Assembly (NCBI GenBank): GCA_029881725.1
Contig: JAOUMB010000010.1
Span: forward strand, 1,539-65,538
Direction: 5' to 3'
DNA: 64,000 nt
Origin: Nitrospirota bacterium
GTDB taxonomy: Bacteria > Nitrospirota > JACRHL01
Shown here: positions 1,558 to 50,317 of the stretch, piece after piece
Layout: every line of letters begins with the position of its first letter
Position numbering within the stretch: position 1 is the first letter of the stretch
The notes under the pieces: generated by a model
The model's database searches: none
What the model was told of the DNA's origin: nothing
What the model saw: the letters and a program-made list of their open reading frames with translations, nothing else
Made by a program: the position numbers and the translations under genes

Positions 1558-2319
1558 ATGTTTCTGGACGAAAAACAAGACGACTCCCAACCGGGGCCGG
1601 ACCCCCAGCCCAAACGCAAGCGCCGCAAGCCGGGCAAGTCCACCCTGCGCGTCCGCGCGTTGCGGGTTGCCGCCGTGCTGGTGCTGCTGCTGCTGGCCGC
1701 CCCGGTGGGGCTGGTGGCGCTGTACCGGGACGTGGCTCCGCCCCTCACCCTGCTGATGTTCGTGCGTCTGTTCGACGGCCACGGCATCAAAAAGGAGTGG
1801 GTGCCGCTGGAGAAAATCTCCCGCCACGTGCCGAATTCGGTAATCGCCCTGGAGGACAACCTGTTTTGCGAGCACAACGGTTTCGACTGGGCGGCGATTT
1901 TCGATGCGGCGGCGGACCGCATCCGGGGCACCGGCTCCGGCGGCGGTAGCACCATCACCCAGCAAACCGCCAAGAACGTATTTTTGTGGCCGGACCGCAC
2001 CATGACCCGCAAGGCGTTCGAGGTGCCGTTCGCAAAGATGATGGAGCGGTGGTGGGGCAAGCGCCGCATCATGGAGGTGTATTTGAACGTCATCGAGTGG
2101 GGGCCGGGCATTTACGGCATCGAGGCTGCCTCCCATCACTATTTCGGCAAGTCCGCAAGGGCCCTGACCCGTCAGGAAGCCGCCCTGCTGGCCGCCGTTC
2201 TTCCCAGCCCGCTCACCTGGTCGCCGGCCCGGCCCACCGAACGGGTGACGGGACGCGCCTCGGTGGCGGTGCAGCGGGTGCCGCAATTGCGCGAGTCCCT
2301 TCTGGCCTGTGTGAAATAG
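1558..2319 (+). CDS. mtgA: Monofunctional biosynthetic peptidoglycan transglycosylase (GT51).
   Basis: 253 aa with an ATG start and an N-terminal TM anchor. Motifs EDNLFCEHNGFDW, RGTGSGGGSTITQQTAKNVFLW, RKAFEVPFAKMMERWWGKRRIMEVYLNVIEWGPGIYGIEAA and LTRQEAALLAAVLPSPL align with E. coli MtgA. Confidence 0.9.
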   Translation: MFLDEKQDDSQPGPDPQPKRKRRKPGKSTLRVRALRVAAVLVLLLLAAPVGLVALYRDVAPPLTLLMFVRLFDGHGIKKEWVPLEKISRHVPNSVIALEDNLFCEHNGFDWAAIFDAAADRIRGTGSGGGSTITQQTAKNVFLWPDRTMTRKAFEVPFAKMMERWWGKRRIMEVYLNVIEWGPGIYGIEAASHHYFGKSARALTRQEAALLAAVLPSPLTWSPARPTERVTGRASVAVQRVPQLRESLLACVK

Positions 2320-2334
2320 GGCGATCTGTTCCCT

Positions 2335-2730
2335 GCCCGTGGCACCACGCGAGCCACTGCGATTTTCCACCCGACTTTCACCCCGACCAGCCGCAAATAC
2401 GGCCCCGCGCCCAGCAAACGCCCTTCCGACTCCGTTGCCCGTGGCCCCACTCGAGCCACTTTGATTGTCCCCCCGGCTTCACCCCGACCATCCGCAAATA
2501 CGGTTCCGCGCCCGGCAAACGCCCTTCCGACTCCGTTGCCCGTGGCCCCACTCGAGCCACTGCGATTTTCCACCCGACTTTCACCCCGACCATCCGCAAA
2601 TACGGTTCCGCGCCCGGCAAACGTCCTCCCGACTCCGTTGCCGGTGGCACCACTCGAGCCACTGCGATTTTCCACCCGACTTTCACCCCGACCATCCGCA
2701 AATACGGCCCCGCGCCCAGCGGTTTGACGG
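2335..2730. repeat. Intergenic tandem repeat array, about 4 copies of a roughly 100-bp unit.
   Basis: Units begin near 2339, 2441, 2541 and 2641. The core is ...gagccactgcgattttccacccgactttcaccccgaccatccgcaaatacgg(c/t)(c/t)ccgcgccc(a/g)gcaaacgcccttccgactccgttgccc.... Units 1 and 4 share ggccccgcgcccagc, while units 2 and 3 share ggttccgcgcccggc. Confidence 0.8.
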
Positions 2731-2905
2731 TGGGGGGGTGTGCAGGGTAACGTCGACCGTGGTCGGAGCGATTCCCGGGCCCGCCGCTTTCGGACGGCAA
2801 CCAGATGGTGTTTTTCCCATGTCTGCCAACGCTTCACATGCTCCCTTCGGTACCTTTGCAGTGAAGCATCCGGTTCCCGCCGGGGGTGGATGGGGGGACG
2901 GTTTA

Positions 2906-31849: not shown

Positions 31850-31899
31850 GATTCGGGTATATCTTTTGTTCAATAAAAAACGATTTAAATAACGTGCTG

Positions 31900-32550
31900 T
31901 TACAGAACGGTGGATGGATCCGGCGCCGGGTCCGGAGTTGGGTCCGGAAATTCGGGCAGTATCTCCCCGGGCGCTTCCCCGGGCGCTTCCCCGGGCGCTT
32001 CCCCGGGCGCTTCCCCGGGCGCTTCCCCGGGCGCTTCCTGGGGCGCGTTTTGGGGCACTTCCTGCGGCTCCGGCTGCGGTGCCGGGAGGACGATCTCGAT
32101 GCTGCGATAATCCTTGCCCTGGCGCACGTCGAACGGCACCGCCTGATCAAAGCGCAGAATCAGATACGGGATGCCGCGCTGCTGCCCGCTCGGCTCGTCC
32201 CCTTCGGGGCCCGCGTCCCCTTCATACAGGATGCTCAGGCGCGGCAGGCCGGGCCGTTCCGGAAGCACCGCCGCCTCGCGCCCGAACAGGATGTCGTCCT
32301 CTGGGAACTGTCCGTCCGGCAGGCGGCGCACCCGCACCACCACTTCCCTGGCCGGGTCATGGGGAAAGTGGTCCACGTACTGGGCGATAAAGCGGAACTC
32401 CACGCGCACCACCAGCCCTTCGGCGGTGGTATCGATGGACACGTCCTCCATCACCCCCTGACGCACCGGCTGTGCCGCCACCGGGGCCGCAAGGCCCAGG
32501 CAGATTCCCAGCACGGCCGCCGCCAGTACGGCACCCGCATGCAAACGCAT
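31900..32550 (-). CDS. Secreted hypothetical protein with a C-terminal (EAPG)n repeat.
   Basis: Signal peptide MRLHAGAVLAAAVLGICLGLAAPVAAQP. Strong RBS GGGGAGGGG. C-terminal PQEAPGEAPGEAPGEAPGEAPGEAPGEIL. Confidence 0.6.
   Translation of the reverse strand: MRLHAGAVLAAAVLGICLGLAAPVAAQPVRQGVMEDVSIDTTAEGLVVRVEFRFIAQYVDHFPHDPAREVVVRVRRLPDGQFPEDDILFGREAAVLPERPGLPRLSILYEGDAGPEGDEPSGQQRGIPYLILRFDQAVPFDVRQGKDYRSIEIVLPAPQPEPQEVPQNAPQEAPGEAPGEAPGEAPGEAPGEAPGEILPEFPDPTPDPAPDPSTVL
31965..32036. repeat. 12-bp tandem repeat (ccccgggcgctt)x6 encoding (EAPG)n.
   Basis: Perfect 12-nt periodicity: gggcgcttccccgggcgcttccccgggcgcttcccc.... Confidence 0.85.
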
Positions 32551-32572
32551 GATGTCTTCCCCTCCCCTGTGG

Positions 32573-34348
32573 TTAAAAGGCGCTGTCGGACACGCGGTGT
32601 TGGCGTGAACGGCTGTCCAGAATGGTGGTCATGCTCGAATTCGTATACACGTGGCACGACCCCGAGCAATCCCTCAACTCCGAAACGGTGTAGTTCACAC
32701 CGGGATACTTTTCATGCGGCCCGGAGCGGTAATTCCCGGAGTGGCACCCGGCGCAATCCGGCTGATAGGCCGGGGCCCGCCAGGTGACGGTTTCGCTGTT
32801 GGAACCGTGGCAGCGGGTGCAGGCCAGCGCCAACCGGTGGTCGCCCGGATAGTTCGGGGACTGGTGGCGGAAGGTGTCCGGAATCCAGGCGGTGGTGGTA
32901 TGGCAGTAGTCGCACGAGCGGCCGGTCTGGAAGTGGGTGCTGGTCTTGCCGGTGGCGTTGGTGCCGTTGTGGCAGGAGTTGCAGGTGCCGGGCGAAACGT
33001 TGGCGTGATCGAACCGGGCCGGCAGCCAGGCCACGGTGGAGTGGCAACTGTCACAACTGGCGGTGGTCTGCACGTGGGTAGCCGTCTTGCCGGTGGCGGT
33101 AATGCCGTTGTGGCAGGTGGAACACGTGCCGGGGGCCACCGCGCTGTGATCAAAAGAGGCCGGGATCCACGCGTTGGTGGTGTGGCAGTTGTCGCAGGTG
33201 TTGTCGCTGGCCACGTGGGTGGCATGTTTGCCGATGGCGGTGGTGCCGTTGTGGCAGTTGAAACAGGTGCCGATCACTTCCAGGTGGTCCACCCGCAGGG
33301 CCGGGATGAACGACACCGTGCTGTGGCAGGCTTCACACAGGCTGGATGTCTGGATGTGGGTGGCGTTCTTGCCGATGGCGGTGGTGCCATTGTGGCAGCT
33401 GAAACAGCCGCCGGTCACCTGGGCGTGGCTGAACACCGCGTTGGCCCAGGCGGCGGTGGTGTGGCAGTCGCCGCAGAGGTTGCTGCTCGGGATGTGGGTG
33501 GCACTCTTGCCGGTGGCAATGAGGCCGTTGTGGCAGGTGGAACATTCCCCGAGCACATCCGCGTGGTCCACGCGGGTAACGGTGGCAAAGCTGGTGGTGT
33601 TGTGGCAGCTTTCGCAGAAATTGGTGGTCAGCGGGTGCGCTGCGTGCTTGCCGGTGGCGGTGGTGCCGTTGTGGCAGGTGGAACAACTGCCGGTCACGCC
33701 GGTATGGTCGAAGCGCGCATTGAACCAGGTGGTCGGCGTATGGCAGTCCTCGCAGACGTTGCTGCTGGGAATGTGGGAAGCCGATTTACCGCTGGCGTCC
33801 ACGCCGTTGTGGCAGCGGAAGCAGTTGCCCACGATGCCGGTATGGTCGAAACGGATCATGCCCCAGGCGGTGGTGGTGTGGCAGTCGCTGCACGGGGCGC
33901 TGGTTTGCGGGTGGGTCGGGGTCTTGCCCGGGGCCACGGTGTTGTTGTGGCAACTGGCGCAACTGCCCAGCACGGAGGCGTGGTCCACCCGCGCCACCGG
34001 GTTCCAGCTGTTGGTGGTGTGGCAGTCGCCGCAAAAGTCGGTGCTCTGGATGTGGTTCTGCGGCTTGCGCGATCCGCTCACCCGCCCGGCGCGGGTGTGG
34101 CAGGCGGCGCACTGGGTGGGGGTGGTCTCGAAGATGCCGCGGATATGGCAGCTTTCACACTCCACCTGCTGGTGCGCGCCGGTCAGCGGAAAACCGCTCT
34201 TGAAGTGGTCGAACTGGGGGCGCCCGGACAGCTGGGCCGCGTCGGACATGGCCGGAATCAGCCAGGTGGCCAGCAGCGCTGCCGCCAGCAGGAGTACCCC
34301 CCACCAGCTCCCGAAGACCCCATCGGATGTGCTTTTATGATGCATCAT
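32573..34348 (-). CDS. Periplasmic multihaem c-type cytochrome with about 21 CXXCH plus 1 CXXXCH (paired/doubled CXXCH repeats).
   Basis: 591 aa with a signal peptide. Haem motifs counted: CESCH, CAACH, CGDCH, CASCH, CSDCH, CFRCH, CEDCH, CSTCH x3, CESCH, CGDCH, CFSCH, CEACH, CFNCH, CDNCH, CDSCH, CNSCH, CDYCH, CTRCH, CAGCH, CSGSCH. Repeating module C..CHT..W....FDH..V.G.C..CHNG.TA.GK..H. RBS GAGGT. Confidence 0.9.
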   Translation of the reverse strand: MMHHKSTSDGVFGSWWGVLLLAAALLATWLIPAMSDAAQLSGRPQFDHFKSGFPLTGAHQQVECESCHIRGIFETTPTQCAACHTRAGRVSGSRKPQNHIQSTDFCGDCHTTNSWNPVARVDHASVLGSCASCHNNTVAPGKTPTHPQTSAPCSDCHTTTAWGMIRFDHTGIVGNCFRCHNGVDASGKSASHIPSSNVCEDCHTPTTWFNARFDHTGVTGSCSTCHNGTTATGKHAAHPLTTNFCESCHNTTSFATVTRVDHADVLGECSTCHNGLIATGKSATHIPSSNLCGDCHTTAAWANAVFSHAQVTGGCFSCHNGTTAIGKNATHIQTSSLCEACHSTVSFIPALRVDHLEVIGTCFNCHNGTTAIGKHATHVASDNTCDNCHTTNAWIPASFDHSAVAPGTCSTCHNGITATGKTATHVQTTASCDSCHSTVAWLPARFDHANVSPGTCNSCHNGTNATGKTSTHFQTGRSCDYCHTTTAWIPDTFRHQSPNYPGDHRLALACTRCHGSNSETVTWRAPAYQPDCAGCHSGNYRSGPHEKYPGVNYTVSELRDCSGSCHVYTNSSMTTILDSRSRQHRVSDSAF

Positions 34349-34393: not shown

Positions 34394-35983
34394 TCACCGT
34401 TCAATGGTGATATCGGAAAACGACTCGGTGGTGTGGCACCGGCCGCAGTCTCTTCCAAACTGTTCGCTGTGGACATCGTCCTGCAGGTGACAGGCACCGC
34501 AGGTGTTGGGCTGTTTGACACCCTTTTTTGAGGGCGTTTTGTGGCACGCGAGGCAGTCCAACCCCTCGTGCTTGCCGTCCAGCTTGAACTCGGTCTGCCG
34601 GTTGTGGTCAAAGGACCACAGGGGCCACCCGTTGGGGTTGTGGCAGGTGCCGCACAGGCTTCCCAGCCGCCGTTTGTGCTCGTCCTGCTTCTTGTGGCAG
34701 GCATAGCACTCCCCTTCGGTTTTCACGTAGCGCCGGTCCAGGTGGCACTCCTCGCACGGGGTGACCGCGTGCTGGCCGATGAGCGGAAACGGCGTCAGGT
34801 CGTGGTCAAAGCGCACCTGATCCCGCCATCCGGTTTCCCGGTGGCACTGGGCACAGTTTTCGCCCTGGCGCCCGTCGTGCACGTCGTCCCCCTTGTGGCA
34901 GGCATAGCAGTCGGTCTTGAGCTCCTCCTTGTACAGCACCCCCTTGTGACAGGACCGGCAACGGGCCTTTTCGTGGGCGCCCTTCAGGCGGAAATCGGTG
35001 TCCTTGTCGTGGTCGAAGATCACCCGGTCCCACGCCCTGGGCGTGTGGCAGGAGTCGCATTTCTCCCCGTAGCGCCCCTTGTGCTCGTCGTCGTTCTTGT
35101 GGCAACTGTGGCAATCGGTCTTGAGTTCGTCCTTGTACAGGTCGCCGGTATGGCACGCTTTGCAGGTGACCTCCTTGTGGCTGCCCTTCAAGGGAAAATC
35201 GGTGTCCTTGTCGTGGTCAAACCGCACCCGGTCCCACTTGTCCGGGGTGTGGCAATCCTCGCACTTGTCGCCGTTGGCGCCCCGATGCACGTCGTTGATC
35301 TTGTGGCAGGCGACGCAGGTGTCGGGCACCCCCTTGTACTTCTCTCCCGGGTGACACATGGCGCAGGCCACGTCCATATGGGAGTCCCTGAGGGGGAAGT
35401 CGGTCTTGTCGTGGTCGAAGGCGGTTTTCTTCCAGCCGGCGGTGGAGTGGCAGTCCTCGCACTTTTCCCCCAGCCGCCCGTCGTGGGCATCGTCTTCCTT
35501 GTGGCAGGCAAGACAGGTGGCGGGGGCATCGCGGAACTTCTTGTCCGGCTTGTGGCAGCCGTCACAACGCACGCGCTGATGGCGTCCCTTCAGGCGGTAA
35601 TCGGTCTGGTTGTGATCGAAGGTTTCGCGGTTCAGGCCCACGACATCGGCACTCCGGCCCACGTGATCGGTGTGGCAGACCTGACACTCCTGATTCGCCA
35701 CCTGGGGGGAACGGCCGTGAAACCCGCGTTTTTTACCCACGTCGGACGCCACATCCTTGTGGCAGTCCAGGCACAGGTTGTTCTGCACCCCCTTGCTGAA
35801 CCGTTTGTGGCAGTTGGTGCAGGTGTCCTCGTACTTGGCGTGCCCGGAAATCAACTCGCCGGGCATTACCAGCCGCTCAAGCGGACCGGCGAGGGCGCTA
35901 TGGGGAAACGTCAGCACAGCCATGATAAAAAGCGCCAGCGCCGCTACCAGGGCGCGCCGGACGAAAAAATGCCGGTGCGGCAT
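34394..35983 (-). CDS. Periplasmic multihaem c-type cytochrome with about 21 CXXCH (polymer of c7/c3-like trihaem units).
   Basis: Signal peptide MPHRHFFVRRALVAALALFIMAVLTFPHSALA. 21 CXXCH motifs, from CTNCH through CGRCH. Repeating module C..CH..D.H.G..G..C..CH......W....FDH..T.F.L.G.H....C..CH. Its ATG overlaps the stop of the upstream gene (TGATG). Confidence 0.9.
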   Translation of the reverse strand: MPHRHFFVRRALVAALALFIMAVLTFPHSALAGPLERLVMPGELISGHAKYEDTCTNCHKRFSKGVQNNLCLDCHKDVASDVGKKRGFHGRSPQVANQECQVCHTDHVGRSADVVGLNRETFDHNQTDYRLKGRHQRVRCDGCHKPDKKFRDAPATCLACHKEDDAHDGRLGEKCEDCHSTAGWKKTAFDHDKTDFPLRDSHMDVACAMCHPGEKYKGVPDTCVACHKINDVHRGANGDKCEDCHTPDKWDRVRFDHDKDTDFPLKGSHKEVTCKACHTGDLYKDELKTDCHSCHKNDDEHKGRYGEKCDSCHTPRAWDRVIFDHDKDTDFRLKGAHEKARCRSCHKGVLYKEELKTDCYACHKGDDVHDGRQGENCAQCHRETGWRDQVRFDHDLTPFPLIGQHAVTPCEECHLDRRYVKTEGECYACHKKQDEHKRRLGSLCGTCHNPNGWPLWSFDHNRQTEFKLDGKHEGLDCLACHKTPSKKGVKQPNTCGACHLQDDVHSEQFGRDCGRCHTTESFSDITIER

Positions 35984-38145
35984 CAGTACATGTGTACCGC
36001 GAGCACGTGGATCAGCGCCGTAAACACCATCATCAGGAACAGGGGAAAGTGCAACAGGTGCCACAGGCCAAAAATCCGTTCGTAAAAGCCGAACTCCGCC
36101 ACCGAATGCACGGAGCGGTAGTATTCCTTAAAATGCTTGCGCAACGCCTTGCGATGGCGCGACAACGTCTTGCGGTCCCACCCGTCCTGCTCGGCGCGCT
36201 GCTTCAGGGCCACCCGCGCCACGCGCCGGATGCGCAGCCGGGTCCAGATGGTCCGAGGGCGCACGGTGAGCAGCCGCCAGGTGCGGCCAATCACCCCGGT
36301 GGGGGCGTTCAGCCACTTTTCCAGCCGCAGCAACCGCTCATTCATCTCTTCGGGAAATTCGATGTCCCCCTCCAGTGTACCGTGCGCGGATTTCAAACCC
36401 ATGCGCATTTCGGCGGCGGTGGCGCGGCGCCCATACAGGCCGTGATGGATCTTGGTGTACATGAATCGCCCGAACAGGCCGCTGAAGGCCACCACCAGCA
36501 TGGTGAACAGGGCGATCTGGCTGTTCAGGGAACCCAGGGCGAAATTGGAATGGAATACCACCAGCAGCGGCCCCACCACCCCCATGATCATGTGGGTCTG
36601 GAACCAGTACTTGACCGGTCCCATGCGGCGCATGAAATTCATTTTCTTGCGCATGGGGTAGAGCAGCAACAAGGCCATCATCACCGCCCCGGCAATGCCC
36701 AGGTAGTAACCGGTACCGGTTTCGGCGGACAGGTAGCCGGTCTCGCGCTGGGTCCATCCATACAGGGTGGCGCCGAACACGGCAAACATGAACAGCCCCC
36801 ACCCCAGACCGGAGGAAGCATCCGGAACGGCGGGGTCGTTGGCCGGGCGCGGTTCGGGAACCGGAATCGGACTGGCCTTGGCGGCCGGAACCGCAGCGGC
36901 CTTCTTGGCCTTCGGCGCACCATCCTGGCCACCCCCACCGGAACGGCCGGACGGCACGTGCGGGCGGCCGGGGCCACCGGACTTGCGCGCCGGGGTCGAG
37001 GCACATTGCTGGACCTGCGGGGCCGGGTCCGCCGCCGGAGCCGACACGGGCACCACCTGGCTGGCGGCTTCCTTGGAACGCACTGCGGACACCGTCGCGG
37101 CCACCTGAGCGGCCAGGGAGTCCTGGGGTGCAACCTGAGGCACGGCAGCGGGTGTCACCTGCGGCGCGGGCGTGGAAATTTTGGGAATGGCCACCCTGGG
37201 AGTGGCCTGGGGCGCCGGGGCGGGCACGGTCTGGGCGGCGGGCTTCACCGTCACCACCGCAGCCGCACGGGCAGCGGGAAGTTCACCCGGATTGCGGGCC
37301 GCATCGATAATCGCCTTTAACGCAGCCGCGTTGCGGTCCGGCGCCTCCGCCGGGGTACGGGCAGCCGCCACCAGTTTACGGACTGCGGCTTCACGCCCGG
37401 CCTCCTGAGTGGACTGGGGGGTGGCCGCCTTCGAGATCGCGGCGGTCGATGTCGGTTTCGGAACGGCCATCTTGGGGGCAGCGGCCTGCGGGGCAGCCAT
37501 CTTGGGGGCAGCCGCCTGCGGAGCAGCCATCTTGGGGGCAGCGGCCTGCGGAGCAGTCATCTTGGGGGCAGCCACATTATCGCCCAGCGTCATTGCCACC
37601 AGGCGGGCCATTGCCTCGCGCCGGATCGCCTGACGCGCGGCGGTTGATTGGGTATCTTCTATGGCGGTATCCGCCGGGGCCTGGGCAGCGGTTTGTGCCT
37701 GCACCGCGTCCATGATGCGTTCGGCTTCATCTCCAAACGCCACCGACAGCAGCATGGCCAGTTGCTCGCGGGTGGAGCGGGAACGTTGCGGCAACGGAGG
37801 CGCCGGCTGAGGCGCGGCGCCGGAACCAATCGGACCCTGAATGTGGCCGCCAGGCGGCGGCCCGATCAAGCCCGACGGGGTTCCCGAACCGCTCCCAACC
37901 CGACGCGCGATTTCCGAAGCGTGCTCGCCAAAGGCCAGTGACAGAAGGGATTCCAGCTCCGCACCGGATACCGGCTCCCCTTTCAACGGACGCGATTCCA
38001 CATCCAGACCAAAGAAATCGCCCTTCATCGGACCGGCATCGTCCAGGCTGCCCCAGCCTCCCGGGTGAACCCGGGAACCGGTGCGGTCAGACGACGGATC
38101 AAAGGATTCCAGTGCGTCCATATCCATGCCGGAAAAATCTTCCAT
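35983..38145 (-). CDS. Membrane protein with a roughly 440-aa Ala/Pro-rich low-complexity N-terminal region and a C-terminal 5-TM domain carrying two bis-His helices (ferric-reductase/cytochrome-b-like).
   Basis: 720 aa. Strong RBS GGGAGGTG plus ATG MEDFSGMDMDAL. In-frame (KMAAPQAAAP)n repeat. TM helices: GWGLFMFAVFGATLYGW; YYLGIAGAVMMALLLLYP; YWFQTHMIMGVVGPLLVVFHSNF (two His 14 residues apart); IALFTMLVVAFSGLFGRFMY; WHLLHFPLFLMMVFTALIHVLAVHMY (two His 14 residues apart). Confidence 0.65.
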   Translation of the reverse strand: MEDFSGMDMDALESFDPSSDRTGSRVHPGGWGSLDDAGPMKGDFFGLDVESRPLKGEPVSGAELESLLSLAFGEHASEIARRVGSGSGTPSGLIGPPPGGHIQGPIGSGAAPQPAPPLPQRSRSTREQLAMLLSVAFGDEAERIMDAVQAQTAAQAPADTAIEDTQSTAARQAIRREAMARLVAMTLGDNVAAPKMTAPQAAAPKMAAPQAAAPKMAAPQAAAPKMAVPKPTSTAAISKAATPQSTQEAGREAAVRKLVAAARTPAEAPDRNAAALKAIIDAARNPGELPAARAAAVVTVKPAAQTVPAPAPQATPRVAIPKISTPAPQVTPAAVPQVAPQDSLAAQVAATVSAVRSKEAASQVVPVSAPAADPAPQVQQCASTPARKSGGPGRPHVPSGRSGGGGQDGAPKAKKAAAVPAAKASPIPVPEPRPANDPAVPDASSGLGWGLFMFAVFGATLYGWTQRETGYLSAETGTGYYLGIAGAVMMALLLLYPMRKKMNFMRRMGPVKYWFQTHMIMGVVGPLLVVFHSNFALGSLNSQIALFTMLVVAFSGLFGRFMYTKIHHGLYGRRATAAEMRMGLKSAHGTLEGDIEFPEEMNERLLRLEKWLNAPTGVIGRTWRLLTVRPRTIWTRLRIRRVARVALKQRAEQDGWDRKTLSRHRKALRKHFKEYYRSVHSVAEFGFYERIFGLWHLLHFPLFLMMVFTALIHVLAVHMY
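37440..37575. repeat. 30-bp tandem repeat, about 3.5 copies, inside the membrane-protein gene.
   Basis: Unit catcttgggggcagc(g/c)gcctgcgg(g/a)gcag(c/t). Copies start near 37468, 37498, 37528 and 37558. Encodes KMAAPQAAAP repeats on the minus strand. Confidence 0.75.
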
Positions 38146-47659: not shown

Positions 47660-50266
47660 TTAGTTCGCGATCACGCAGATGGCGTATACCGTGAGGGTGC
47701 TATCCGAGATTTCACCCGTGGTGTCCACCTTCACGCGCCAGCCGGTGGGGTTGAGCCCGCCGTCGGGCAGGTTCTCCACCAGACGCAGGGCCGGGCCGGA
47801 GAGGCCGAGTCCCACGTGGCCGGTGTAGCCACCGCCGACCGGCTTCTTGCCGACCGGGCAGGTCGCCGCGCCACCCGCCGCCGCCTGTGCGGGCGGTACG
47901 GTCACGGTGGAGCTGATCACCTGGTAGCCGGAGACACCGTTGATGCCGTCGGCACCCGCGGCGCCGGTGGCACCCGTGGAGCCGGTGGCACCCTGCGGAC
48001 CCGTGGCACCCTGCAGGCCCGTGGGGCCCTGGATACCCGTGGCACCCGTGGCACCCACAGCGCCGGTGGCACCGGTGGCACCCACAGGACCCTGGGCACC
48101 GGTGGCACCCGTGGAGCCGGTGGCACCCTGCGGACCTACGTTACCCTGCGGACCCTGGGAGCCCTGCGGACCCGTGGCACCCTGGATACCCTGCGGACCA
48201 GCCGGGCCGGTAGCGCCCTGCGCACCCTGCGCACCCACAGCACCCTGCGGACCGGTGTTACCGGTGGCGCCCTGCGGACCCTGCGGTCCGGCAACGCCCT
48301 GGAGGCCTTGTGCGCCCTGCGGGCCGGTATCACCCTTGGCACCGGTGGCACCGGTGGCACCTTGGGCACCCTGCGGACCAGTGTCACCGGTGGCGCCCTT
48401 CGGACCAGCCGGTCCTGTCAGACCGGTATCACCGGTGGCACCCGTGGCACCCGTGGCGCCAGTAGCGCCGGCAGCGCCCTGCGGACCAGCCGGTCCGGTC
48501 AGACCGGTATCACCGGTGGCACCCGTGGCACCCGTGGCGCCGGCAGCGCCCTGCGGACCTACATTACCCTGCGGACCCTGGTTGCCCTGCAGGCCCTGCG
48601 GACCAATCGGACCCTGGTCACCCTTCAAGCCCTGCGGACCCTGCGGGCCCTGCGGACCCACGGCACCCTGCGGACCGGTGTTACCGGTGGCGCCCTGCGG
48701 ACCCTGCGGTCCGGCAACGCCCTGGAGGCCTTGTGCGCCCTGCGGGCCGGTGTCACCCTTGGCACCGGTGGCACCTTGGGCACCCTGCGGACCAGTGTCA
48801 CCGGTGGCGCCCTTCGGACCAGCCGGTCCGGTCAGACCGGTATCACCGGTGGCACCCGTGGCACCCGTGGCGCCGGCAGCGCCCTGCGGACCCACGTTAC
48901 CCTGCGGACCCTGGTTGCCCTGCAGGCCCTGCGGACCAATCGGACCCTGGTCGCCCTTCAGGCCCTGCGGACCCTGCGGACCGGTATCACCCTTCGCGCC
49001 GGTCGGGCCAACCGGGCCCATCGGGCCAACATCACCCGTGGCGCCGGTGGCACCCTGCGGACCCACGTTACCCTGCGGACCCTGGTTGCCCTGCAGGCCC
49101 TGCGGACCAATCGGACCTTGGTCACCCTTCAGGCCCTGTGGGCCCTGGGCACCGGTGGCACCCTGCGGACCAGCCGGTCCGGTCAGACCGGTATCACCGG
49201 TGGCACCCTTGGCGCCCGTGGCGCCGGTGGCACCCTGCGGACCCACGTTACCCTGCGCACCCTGGGAGCCCTGCGGACCCGTGGCACCCTGGATACCCTG
49301 CGGACCAGCCGGTCCGGTAGCACCCTGCGCACCCTGCGGACCCACGGCACCCTGAGAACCGGTGTTACCGGTGGCGCCCTGCGGACCCTGCGGTCCGGCA
49401 ACGCCCTGGAGGCCTTGTGCGCCCTGCGGGCCGGTATCACCCTTGGCACCGGTGGCGCCCTGGGCACCCTGCGGACCTACGTTACCCTGCGGACCCTGGT
49501 TGCCCTGCAGGCCCTGCGGACCAATCGGACCCTGGTCACCCTTCAGGCCCTGCGGACCCTGCGGACCGGTATCACCCTTCGCGCCGGTCGGGCCAACCGG
49601 GCCCATCGGGCCAACATCACCCGTGGCGCCGGTGGCACCCTTCGGACCAATATCACCCTGCGGACCCTGCGATCCCTTCGGACCGGTGGGGCCATCCAGG
49701 CCCTGCGGACCCACGGAACCGGTGACGCCGGTCGGTCCAACCGGACCCACCGGACCCTGGGCACCGATGGCACCCTGCGGACCCTGCGGACCCTGCGGTC
49801 CCGGGGTCAGGGAGGTATAGGCATACGGAACACTCCCGAACGGACGCGGAGGCGTCAGCTCCTGGAATGCAACGTTAAAGGGGTCGGGGCTGAACCACAC
49901 CCGCAGCAACGCTTCCGAGGTTCCGAAGGCGGTGGCCGGGATGGGGTTCATCCCCGCCGCGCCGAGATCCACGTGAAAATCGCCGTAGACGACCGGAGCC
50001 GCCTGGGAACCGGCGGGCACTTCCACAATCTGGTTGCTCTCCACCGAACCGTCGTTCGACCACAGGGTGGCATACCCCGCCGTCGCATTCCCGGTCACGA
50101 TGGTGAATTTGAAATATCCGGTACCGGTGAACGGAACACCGCTGGCGTCAAGCTTCCCCGAATAGGGAACGACCTCCGGAATAAGGGATTGCTGCGCCCA
50201 CACAGGTACCTGCCCAAAGGCAAGCATGGTGGCCGCGACATACACAAGCAGTCTCGACTTTTTCAT
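47660..50266 (-). CDS. Collagen-like triple-helix repeat protein with N- and C-terminal globular domains.
   Basis: Signal peptide [24 protein letters not shown]. About 165-aa N-terminal domain, then about 200 uninterrupted Gly-X-Y triplets ([25 protein letters not shown]...), then a roughly 95-aa C-terminal domain ending ...[16 protein letters not shown]. Confidence 0.85.
47950..49790. repeat. Internally repetitive DNA encoding the collagen Gly-X-Y tract.
   Basis: Long runs of near-identical 9-27-nt units (ggcacc ctgcggacc ...). Antisense frames give long spurious ORFs (for example 47573..50560 +). Confidence 0.8.
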
Positions 50267-50317
50267 CTTAATACTCCCACTGTTCACAGAACGACACATC
50301 CTTGTTGTTCATTTAAA

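Follow-up and report, generated by a model that had tools for sequence, protein, structure and literature searches.

Results

The repeat array and its neighbours

The window analysed here, a stretch of 64,000 nucleotides from an uncultured sediment bacterium, contains a tandem repeat array in the spacer that leads from mtgA to the gene of a calcium/sodium antiporter (Table 1). Tandem Repeats Finder delimited the array at 2334-2717, with a period of 102, 3.8 copies, 91% matches and no indels (score 642). Alignment of the units against each other moved the true right border to 2720, where homology between the units ends, and gave a range of 2334-2720. The four copies follow each other head-to-tail, with start-to-start spacings of 101, 102 and 102 nt. 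The first one begins 15 nt past the mtgA stop codon, leaving 14 nt between, and 184 nt separate the right end of the array from the antiporter start codon (2905). Both borders are sharp, as neither the 14 nt after the mtgA stop codon nor the sequence beyond 2720 resembles the unit. The architecture can be written as a(fa)n, where a is an 82-nt element, rich in C and poor in G, and f a filler of 18-20 nt (AAACGYCCTYCCGACTCCGT) that is present solely between units. The initial annotation had described a four-copy tandem array of roughly 100 bp per unit between mtgA and a Ca2+ antiporter gene. Repeat detection, unit alignment and the gene names obtained from Pfam and NCBI bear out this description.

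Both flanking genes have a coding profile in their GC content by codon position (0.65/0.47/0.85 for mtgA and 0.70/0.46/0.88 for the antiporter gene). The mtgA product is 100% identical to NCBI entry MDH5526487.1, from a metagenome-assembled genome (MAG) labelled Nitrospirota bacterium. Downstream, an ORF for a P-type cation ATPase (6577 to 3902) is convergent with the antiporter gene, and none of the annotated neighbours adjoining the locus is a regulator gene. The leader of the antiporter gene was found to be unusually G-rich, with GGGGGGG at 2732-2738 and GGGGGTGGATGGGGGG ahead of the ATG. No Rfam family matched this leader (2721-2904).

Table 1. Coordinates of the array, its units and the flanking features (positions in the window)
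Feature	Position	Strand	Remarks
mtgA, monofunctional peptidoglycan transglycosylase	1558..2319	+	ORF, PF00912; upstream flank
Unit 1, 101 nt	2334..2434	+	element a (82 nt) and filler f; private G16, G57
Unit 2, 102 nt	2435..2536	+	most divergent; 6-7 private changes
Unit 3, 102 nt	2537..2638	+	mosaic; private T88, C92 within the filler
Unit 4, 82 nt, truncated	2639..2720	+	element a alone, without filler
Weak hairpin GTGGC-N9-GCCAC, TTTT 5 nt later	2339..2366, also near 2441, 2542, 2644	+	recurs in every unit
Unique G-rich spacer, array to antiporter start codon	2721..2904	+	same in all assemblies compared
Weak -35-like element TTGACG	2724-2729		18-nt gap to the -10-like element; just downstream of the array
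Weak -10-like element TAACGT	2748-2753
7-bp hairpin GCTTCAC...GTGAAGC	about 2831-2867		in the unique spacer
Calcium/sodium antiporter, Na_Ca_ex, YrbG-like, 327 aa	2905..3888	+	PF01699; downstream flank

Variation among the units

The four units differ from each other at 15 alignment columns. Unit 2 departs most from the rest, its private changes being TT26-27, G32, C36, G41, a deletion at 43 and an additional leading T, whereas units 1, 3 and 4 carry one or two private changes each. Other variants are shared between units (A/C11, G/T16, G/T57, CC/TT70-71 and A/G80) and are distributed as a mosaic. Unit 3 is itself composed in this manner: its head and tail are like unit 2 and its middle is like units 1 and 4.

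The inner two units had been considered the most similar pair. This was wrong: over the common 82 nt, units 1 and 4 are the closest (96.3% identity), followed by units 3 and 4 (93.9%), while units 2 and 3 reach 92.7%, the same value as units 1 and 3. The closest sequences to unit 4 are unit 1 and the allele with one copy found in two other assemblies (L001 and L004, see below). The process that had been proposed along with this pairing, unequal recombination between units, nevertheless agrees with the data, since the mosaic of variants is compatible with recombination as well as with slippage. The presence of both private and shared variants in such a mosaic argues for exchange between units and against an artefactual expansion.

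Search for further copies and for relatives of the locus

A 24-nt core of the unit occurred four times in the 64-kb window, each time in the array, when none was expected from 100 dinucleotide shuffles. With blastn-short, run on the window and on contig L001, which adds 4.4 kb further upstream, no second copy of the unit appeared in a total of about 68 kb. It had been asked whether the unit belonged to a dispersed REP-like family or to a local array, and within these 68 kb it is found at this locus only. Searches of the GTDB representative genomes with the unit core gave 0 matches, a weak negative given that the source MAG is absent from that collection. IMG/VR likewise gave 0 matches for the core, and the unit had no match in plasmid and phage collections. 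The single match among JGI metagenome contigs (L007, 505-525) was discarded, as 21 nt agree by chance within a protein-coding sequence (…HPTIRKYGLGY…) on an unrelated contig. This JGI scan also missed contig L003, although L003 holds the pattern, and all of these negatives from public collections are weak.

We found no close relative that retained the locus. In the nearest relative of mtgA (82% identity, L006), the 75 nt after the gene had no significant similarity to the spacer, and mtgA relatives at 72% identity or less were followed by other genes. The nearest relative of the antiporter was 62% identical. Among GTDB genomes, the nearest mtgA relatives (L017-L019) came from an unclassified 'uncultured bacterium' MAG (69%) and from Pseudomonadota/Rhodospirillales MAGs (64%), and the nearest named relatives of the antiporter, at below 62%, were from Gammaproteobacteria. 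The taxonomic label Nitrospirota given by NCBI, or the binning, may be doubtful.

Promoter signals and composition of the array

The array had been said to overlap the probable promoter and 5' region of the antiporter gene. We could not confirm this. A scan for sigma-70-like promoters between 2200 and 3000 passed no candidate, and the sigma-54 consensus, at two mismatches or fewer, had no match in the units and fewer matches across the window than in shuffled sequence. The only signal was the weak -35/-10-like pair of Table 1, which lies outside the array, on its downstream side.

These results bear on a reading of the array as a regulatory contingency locus, an idea that goes back to the initial annotation, where each unit would contribute a promoter element or a transcription factor binding site and copy number would tune expression of the antiporter. 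The array is indeed upstream of the antiporter gene and co-oriented with it, and copy number differs among assemblies. Each unit contains CCGAC three times and units 1 and 4 contain a TGGCAC hexamer. Mycobacterium tuberculosis moreover has promoter tandem repeats of 54-58 bp whose copy number varies frequently (PMC12817950). However, the missing promoter consensus, the 184 nt that separate the end of the array from the start codon, the position of the weak promoter-like pair and the lack of an adjoining regulator gene all argue against such a role, and we consider it unlikely.

The + strand of the array contains 175 C and 78 G, which makes it the 384-nt stretch with the strongest skew of C over G in the 64 kb; single units lie in the top 1-2.5% of the window, high but not extreme. 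The ratio of C to G is 2.2, and YC dimers reach 0.27 per nt in the array compared with 0.17 in the window. The weak hairpin that recurs in every unit has an invariant stem, the variants A/C11 and G/T16 being situated in its loop. Together with the T-run that follows it, this hairpin is terminator-like but stays below the thresholds of the terminator consensus, and a scan for intrinsic terminators called none in the array.

Rho loading (rut) sites are untranslated stretches, about 80 nt long, of C-rich, G-poor and poorly structured RNA downstream of a stop codon. The array resembles them by composition alone, as it is untranslated, C-rich and G-poor, has many YC dimers and little predicted structure, and follows directly after a stop codon. 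Rut sites lack a consensus sequence, and no tandem amplification of them is known. If the array had a phenotypic effect, the likeliest one would be on transcription running from mtgA towards the antiporter gene. Each extra unit would lengthen the transcript by 102 nt of C-rich RNA that is neither translated nor structured and resembles a Rho loading site, and would bring one more weak hairpin and T-run. A higher copy number would thus insulate the antiporter gene more strongly from mtgA read-through and would move upstream signals further off. Such an effect on Rho loading or insulation is a guess, made from composition and lack of structure. That the array acts as an insulator of variable copy number, an amplified module of a rut-like sequence and a weak terminator which sets the read-through from mtgA into the antiporter gene, appears improbable to us, somewhat more so than the contingency locus. 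If it were true, it would represent a heritable and rapidly reversible switch of cation-efflux capacity in an environmental bacterium.

Copy number in independent assemblies

We compared the window with assemblies of the same population, that is, those carrying the exact mtgA and antiporter proteins, with flanks 98.8-100% identical to the window. Two MEGAHIT k141 assemblies (L001, a 95-kb contig from ENA, and L004) have a spacer of 280 nt with one copy (L-a-R). The spacer of a sister strain in a JGI assembly (3300022221, L003) measures 382 nt and has two copies (L-a-f-a-R), and that of the window measures 585 nt and has four. These three lengths are separated by exact multiples of the unit. 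The flanks of the window and of L001 are 99.9% identical, with a handful of mismatches, yet one has four copies and the other a single one. The filler and the inter-unit junction of the window recur in L003, an independent assembly.

In three further assemblies, two Logan runs and one ENA contig, the contigs break within the array. Logan contigs L002 and L005 end inside unit 1, at window position 2363, whereas Logan contig L015 and ENA contig L016 begin inside the last unit. L015 starts at 2678, precisely where 31-mers become unique to the last unit, the preceding 31-mer being common to units 3 and 4. At k=31, the graph of an array with several units is bound to break at this place, which would be impossible with a single copy. 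The left-hand end at 2363 corresponds to the last 31-mer containing a base of the flank, while the window's own array predicts a break at 2379. This suggests that a head of the unit 1 type is also present within the array in the read sets of L002 and L005, where the units would be in a different order or more numerous. The reasoning on the left-hand break presumes k=31 for Logan, and the right-hand break supports this value. Overall, the Logan contig ends imply at least two units in two further runs.

The array is therefore real in the reads of several samples and does not look like an artefact of assembly. A mis-assembly of the window, starting from a genome with one copy as in L001 and L004, would agree with the near-identical flanks of these two MEGAHIT assemblies and with the fact that repeats are error-prone places in metagenome assembly. 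The error that assemblers make at tandem repeats, however, is collapse rather than expansion (PMC12817950), and the units of the window are distinguishable by their 15 variable columns and unit-private variants; both points lend credibility to the four-copy version. The junction in L003 and the internal breaks in the Logan and ENA contigs, one of them exactly at the predicted branch, cannot be reconciled easily with a one-copy genome either. We hold a mis-assembly to be very unlikely. The initial annotation had named collapse to a single copy in the reads as the outcome that would turn the array into an artefact, and independent assemblies point the other way. It had also recommended a comparison of copy number among strains or reads. 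This comparison did yield versions with one, two and four copies, but the assemblies alone did not distinguish true alleles from assembly collapse: the copy number of 1, 2, 4 or more reflects either polymorphism or a collapse, in part or as a whole, by short-read assembly.

RNA structure and other signals

A structured RNA repeated in tandem had been put forward as another explanation. The data did not support it. Across the whole window, Rfam gave no match at the gathering score, and between 2250 and 2950 at E<=10 it returned chance-level eukaryotic and viral models only, all outside the array. Folding of the units on both strands was no better than that of shuffles (z from -0.08 to +1.69). 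Three units were folded, and the 5-bp hairpin was the only structural element to recur, in the + strand centroids of units 1 and 3.

Tandem sRNA paralogues occur in other bacteria, and the unit of about 100 nt has the typical size of an sRNA. In addition, two C-rich tracts of the unit, TCCACCC and GTCCCCCC, match the complement of GGGGGTGGATGGGGGGAC, the G-rich ribosome-binding region of the antiporter gene. A fold of all four copies indeed paired unit 2 with this region, and anti-Shine-Dalgarno pairing was examined as a candidate. It was rejected: the duplex energies were no better than those of dinucleotide shuffles (z from -1.3 to +1.9), and the pairing is thus an effect of composition. The units furthermore have neither a promoter nor an intrinsic terminator of their own, and no homologous sequence from another organism turned up in the collections searched. 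Tandem sRNA genes, or a repeated structured or riboswitch-like leader RNA on either strand, are slightly less probable still than a mis-assembly.

Several other candidates were discarded. A replication origin with a DnaA-box cluster or iterons was not retained, as the surroundings have neither a skew switch nor an AT-rich stretch, and neither dnaA nor dnaN is in the vicinity. Units 1, 3 and 4 carry TTTTCCACC, one mismatch away from the TTWTNCACA pattern, and these sites are copies of one another. A CRISPR array was dismissed on the grounds that the units abut directly and that the filler of 18-20 nt is itself repeated. Canonical patterns of G-quadruplexes or i-motifs, with loops of up to 12 nt, and tRNA or tmRNA genes were absent.

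Coding potential

The array is noncoding. Its GC content by codon position is flat, at 0.60-0.72 in every frame, versus 0.65-0.70/0.44-0.47/0.85-0.88 in three neighbouring genes. A Pfam scan of the array returned no meaningful family, and a concatenated six-frame query found no match among 5.8 billion proteins. No assembly has a gene call in the spacer between mtgA and the antiporter gene. With a spacing of 101 nt, unit 2 is out of frame with unit 1. Membership of the unit in a conserved coding sequence had been raised as a case against the array, and no frame resembles any protein. One spurious-looking ORF of 147 aa (2465-2908) crosses the array, and its stop codon overlaps the antiporter ATG (ATGA, 2905-2908); it has no coding signature. 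A gene for a protein of 34-residue repeats, such as this ORF, could be imagined from a unit length divisible by three (102 = 3 x 34), from the long ORFs that cross the array in several frames and from the ATGA overlap. These ORFs, however, are lost from the allele with a single copy, and at 65% GC open frames arise by chance. In view of the broken frame and the failed coding tests, we give this idea practically no credit.

Other repeats in the window

An ORF of 879 aa on the - strand (47660-50299) matches the Pfam Collagen triple-helix repeat (E = 1.1e-96) and encodes a bacterial collagen-like protein, which explains the dense rows of 9/18/27/36-nt tandem repeats at 47946-49802. A multihaem cytochrome c of 591 aa is encoded on the - strand at 32573-34348 (Cytochrome_C7, c3, paired CXXCH, MtrC/MtrF-like domains). 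The 141-nt tandem repeat inside this ORF (32924-33272) probably corresponds to duplicated haem-binding modules. Two shorter repeats, which may be coding repeats or further VNTRs, are situated in long ORFs to which no Pfam family was assigned: a 12-nt repeat at 31964-32046 (6.9 copies, 97% match; ORFs 31894-32787 on the + and 31900-32550 on the - strand) and a 30-nt repeat at 37459-37572 (3.8 copies, 91% match; ORF 35983-38145 on the - strand).

Discussion

Our data are best described by a noncoding minisatellite. The array between mtgA and the antiporter gene is probably a lineage-specific noncoding VNTR of the form a(fa)n, whose 102-nt units change in number by slippage or unequal recombination. 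Tandem repeats are generally known to change in this way. The array would expand, contract and homogenise through replication slippage or unequal recombination between units, and these processes would account for the mosaic of variants as well as for the versions with one, two and four copies. We infer that the array itself carries no function tied to its sequence. Most likely it is neutral or nearly so.

Arrays of 100-bp units had been called uncommon in bacterial intergenic DNA. This does not agree with the literature, where intergenic VNTRs of 40-100 bp are well known (MIRU-VNTR, PMC3635867; promoter tandem repeats, PMC12817950). The MIRU-VNTR loci of M. tuberculosis consist of units of 40-100 bp, present once to five times or more. 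Most of these loci are intergenic, within operons, their copy number varies between strains, and short reads resolve them poorly (PMC3635867). The array shares with them the tandem units between co-oriented genes and the high GC content; its copy number differs among assemblies. Unlike MIRUs, which are dispersed over dozens of loci, the present unit is at one locus within the roughly 68 kb searched. MIRUs are also described as carrying small ORFs that are in phase with the flanking genes or overlap them, whereas the array has no coding signal and no sequence similarity to MIRUs.

The promoter tandem repeats of M. tuberculosis (dop, lpdA, cysG-efpA) measure 54-58 bp and often change in copy number, a variation obscured by short reads (PMC12817950). 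As in our case, imperfect tandem repeats lie upstream of a gene and assemblies disagree on them. These repeats, however, hold the promoter and are situated 12-29 bp from the gene, whereas the array has a 102-nt unit with no promoter consensus, 184 nt away. REP/BIME, ERIC and MITE elements are short noncoding intergenic repeats as well, but their sequences are palindromic or bounded by terminal inverted repeats, and they occur genome-wide. The unit lacks any significant inverted repeat and is arranged strictly head-to-tail at a single locus. The array is probably an ordinary bacterial intergenic VNTR, and nothing suggests a new kind of element.

The array also serves as a warning: short-read metagenome assemblies disagree at one locus of one population, with one, two or four copies and with broken contigs. 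If the differences in copy number are real, the minisatellite would display MIRU-like dynamics in an uncultured sediment bacterium, beside a gene for a cation transporter, and the array could be used as a strain marker.
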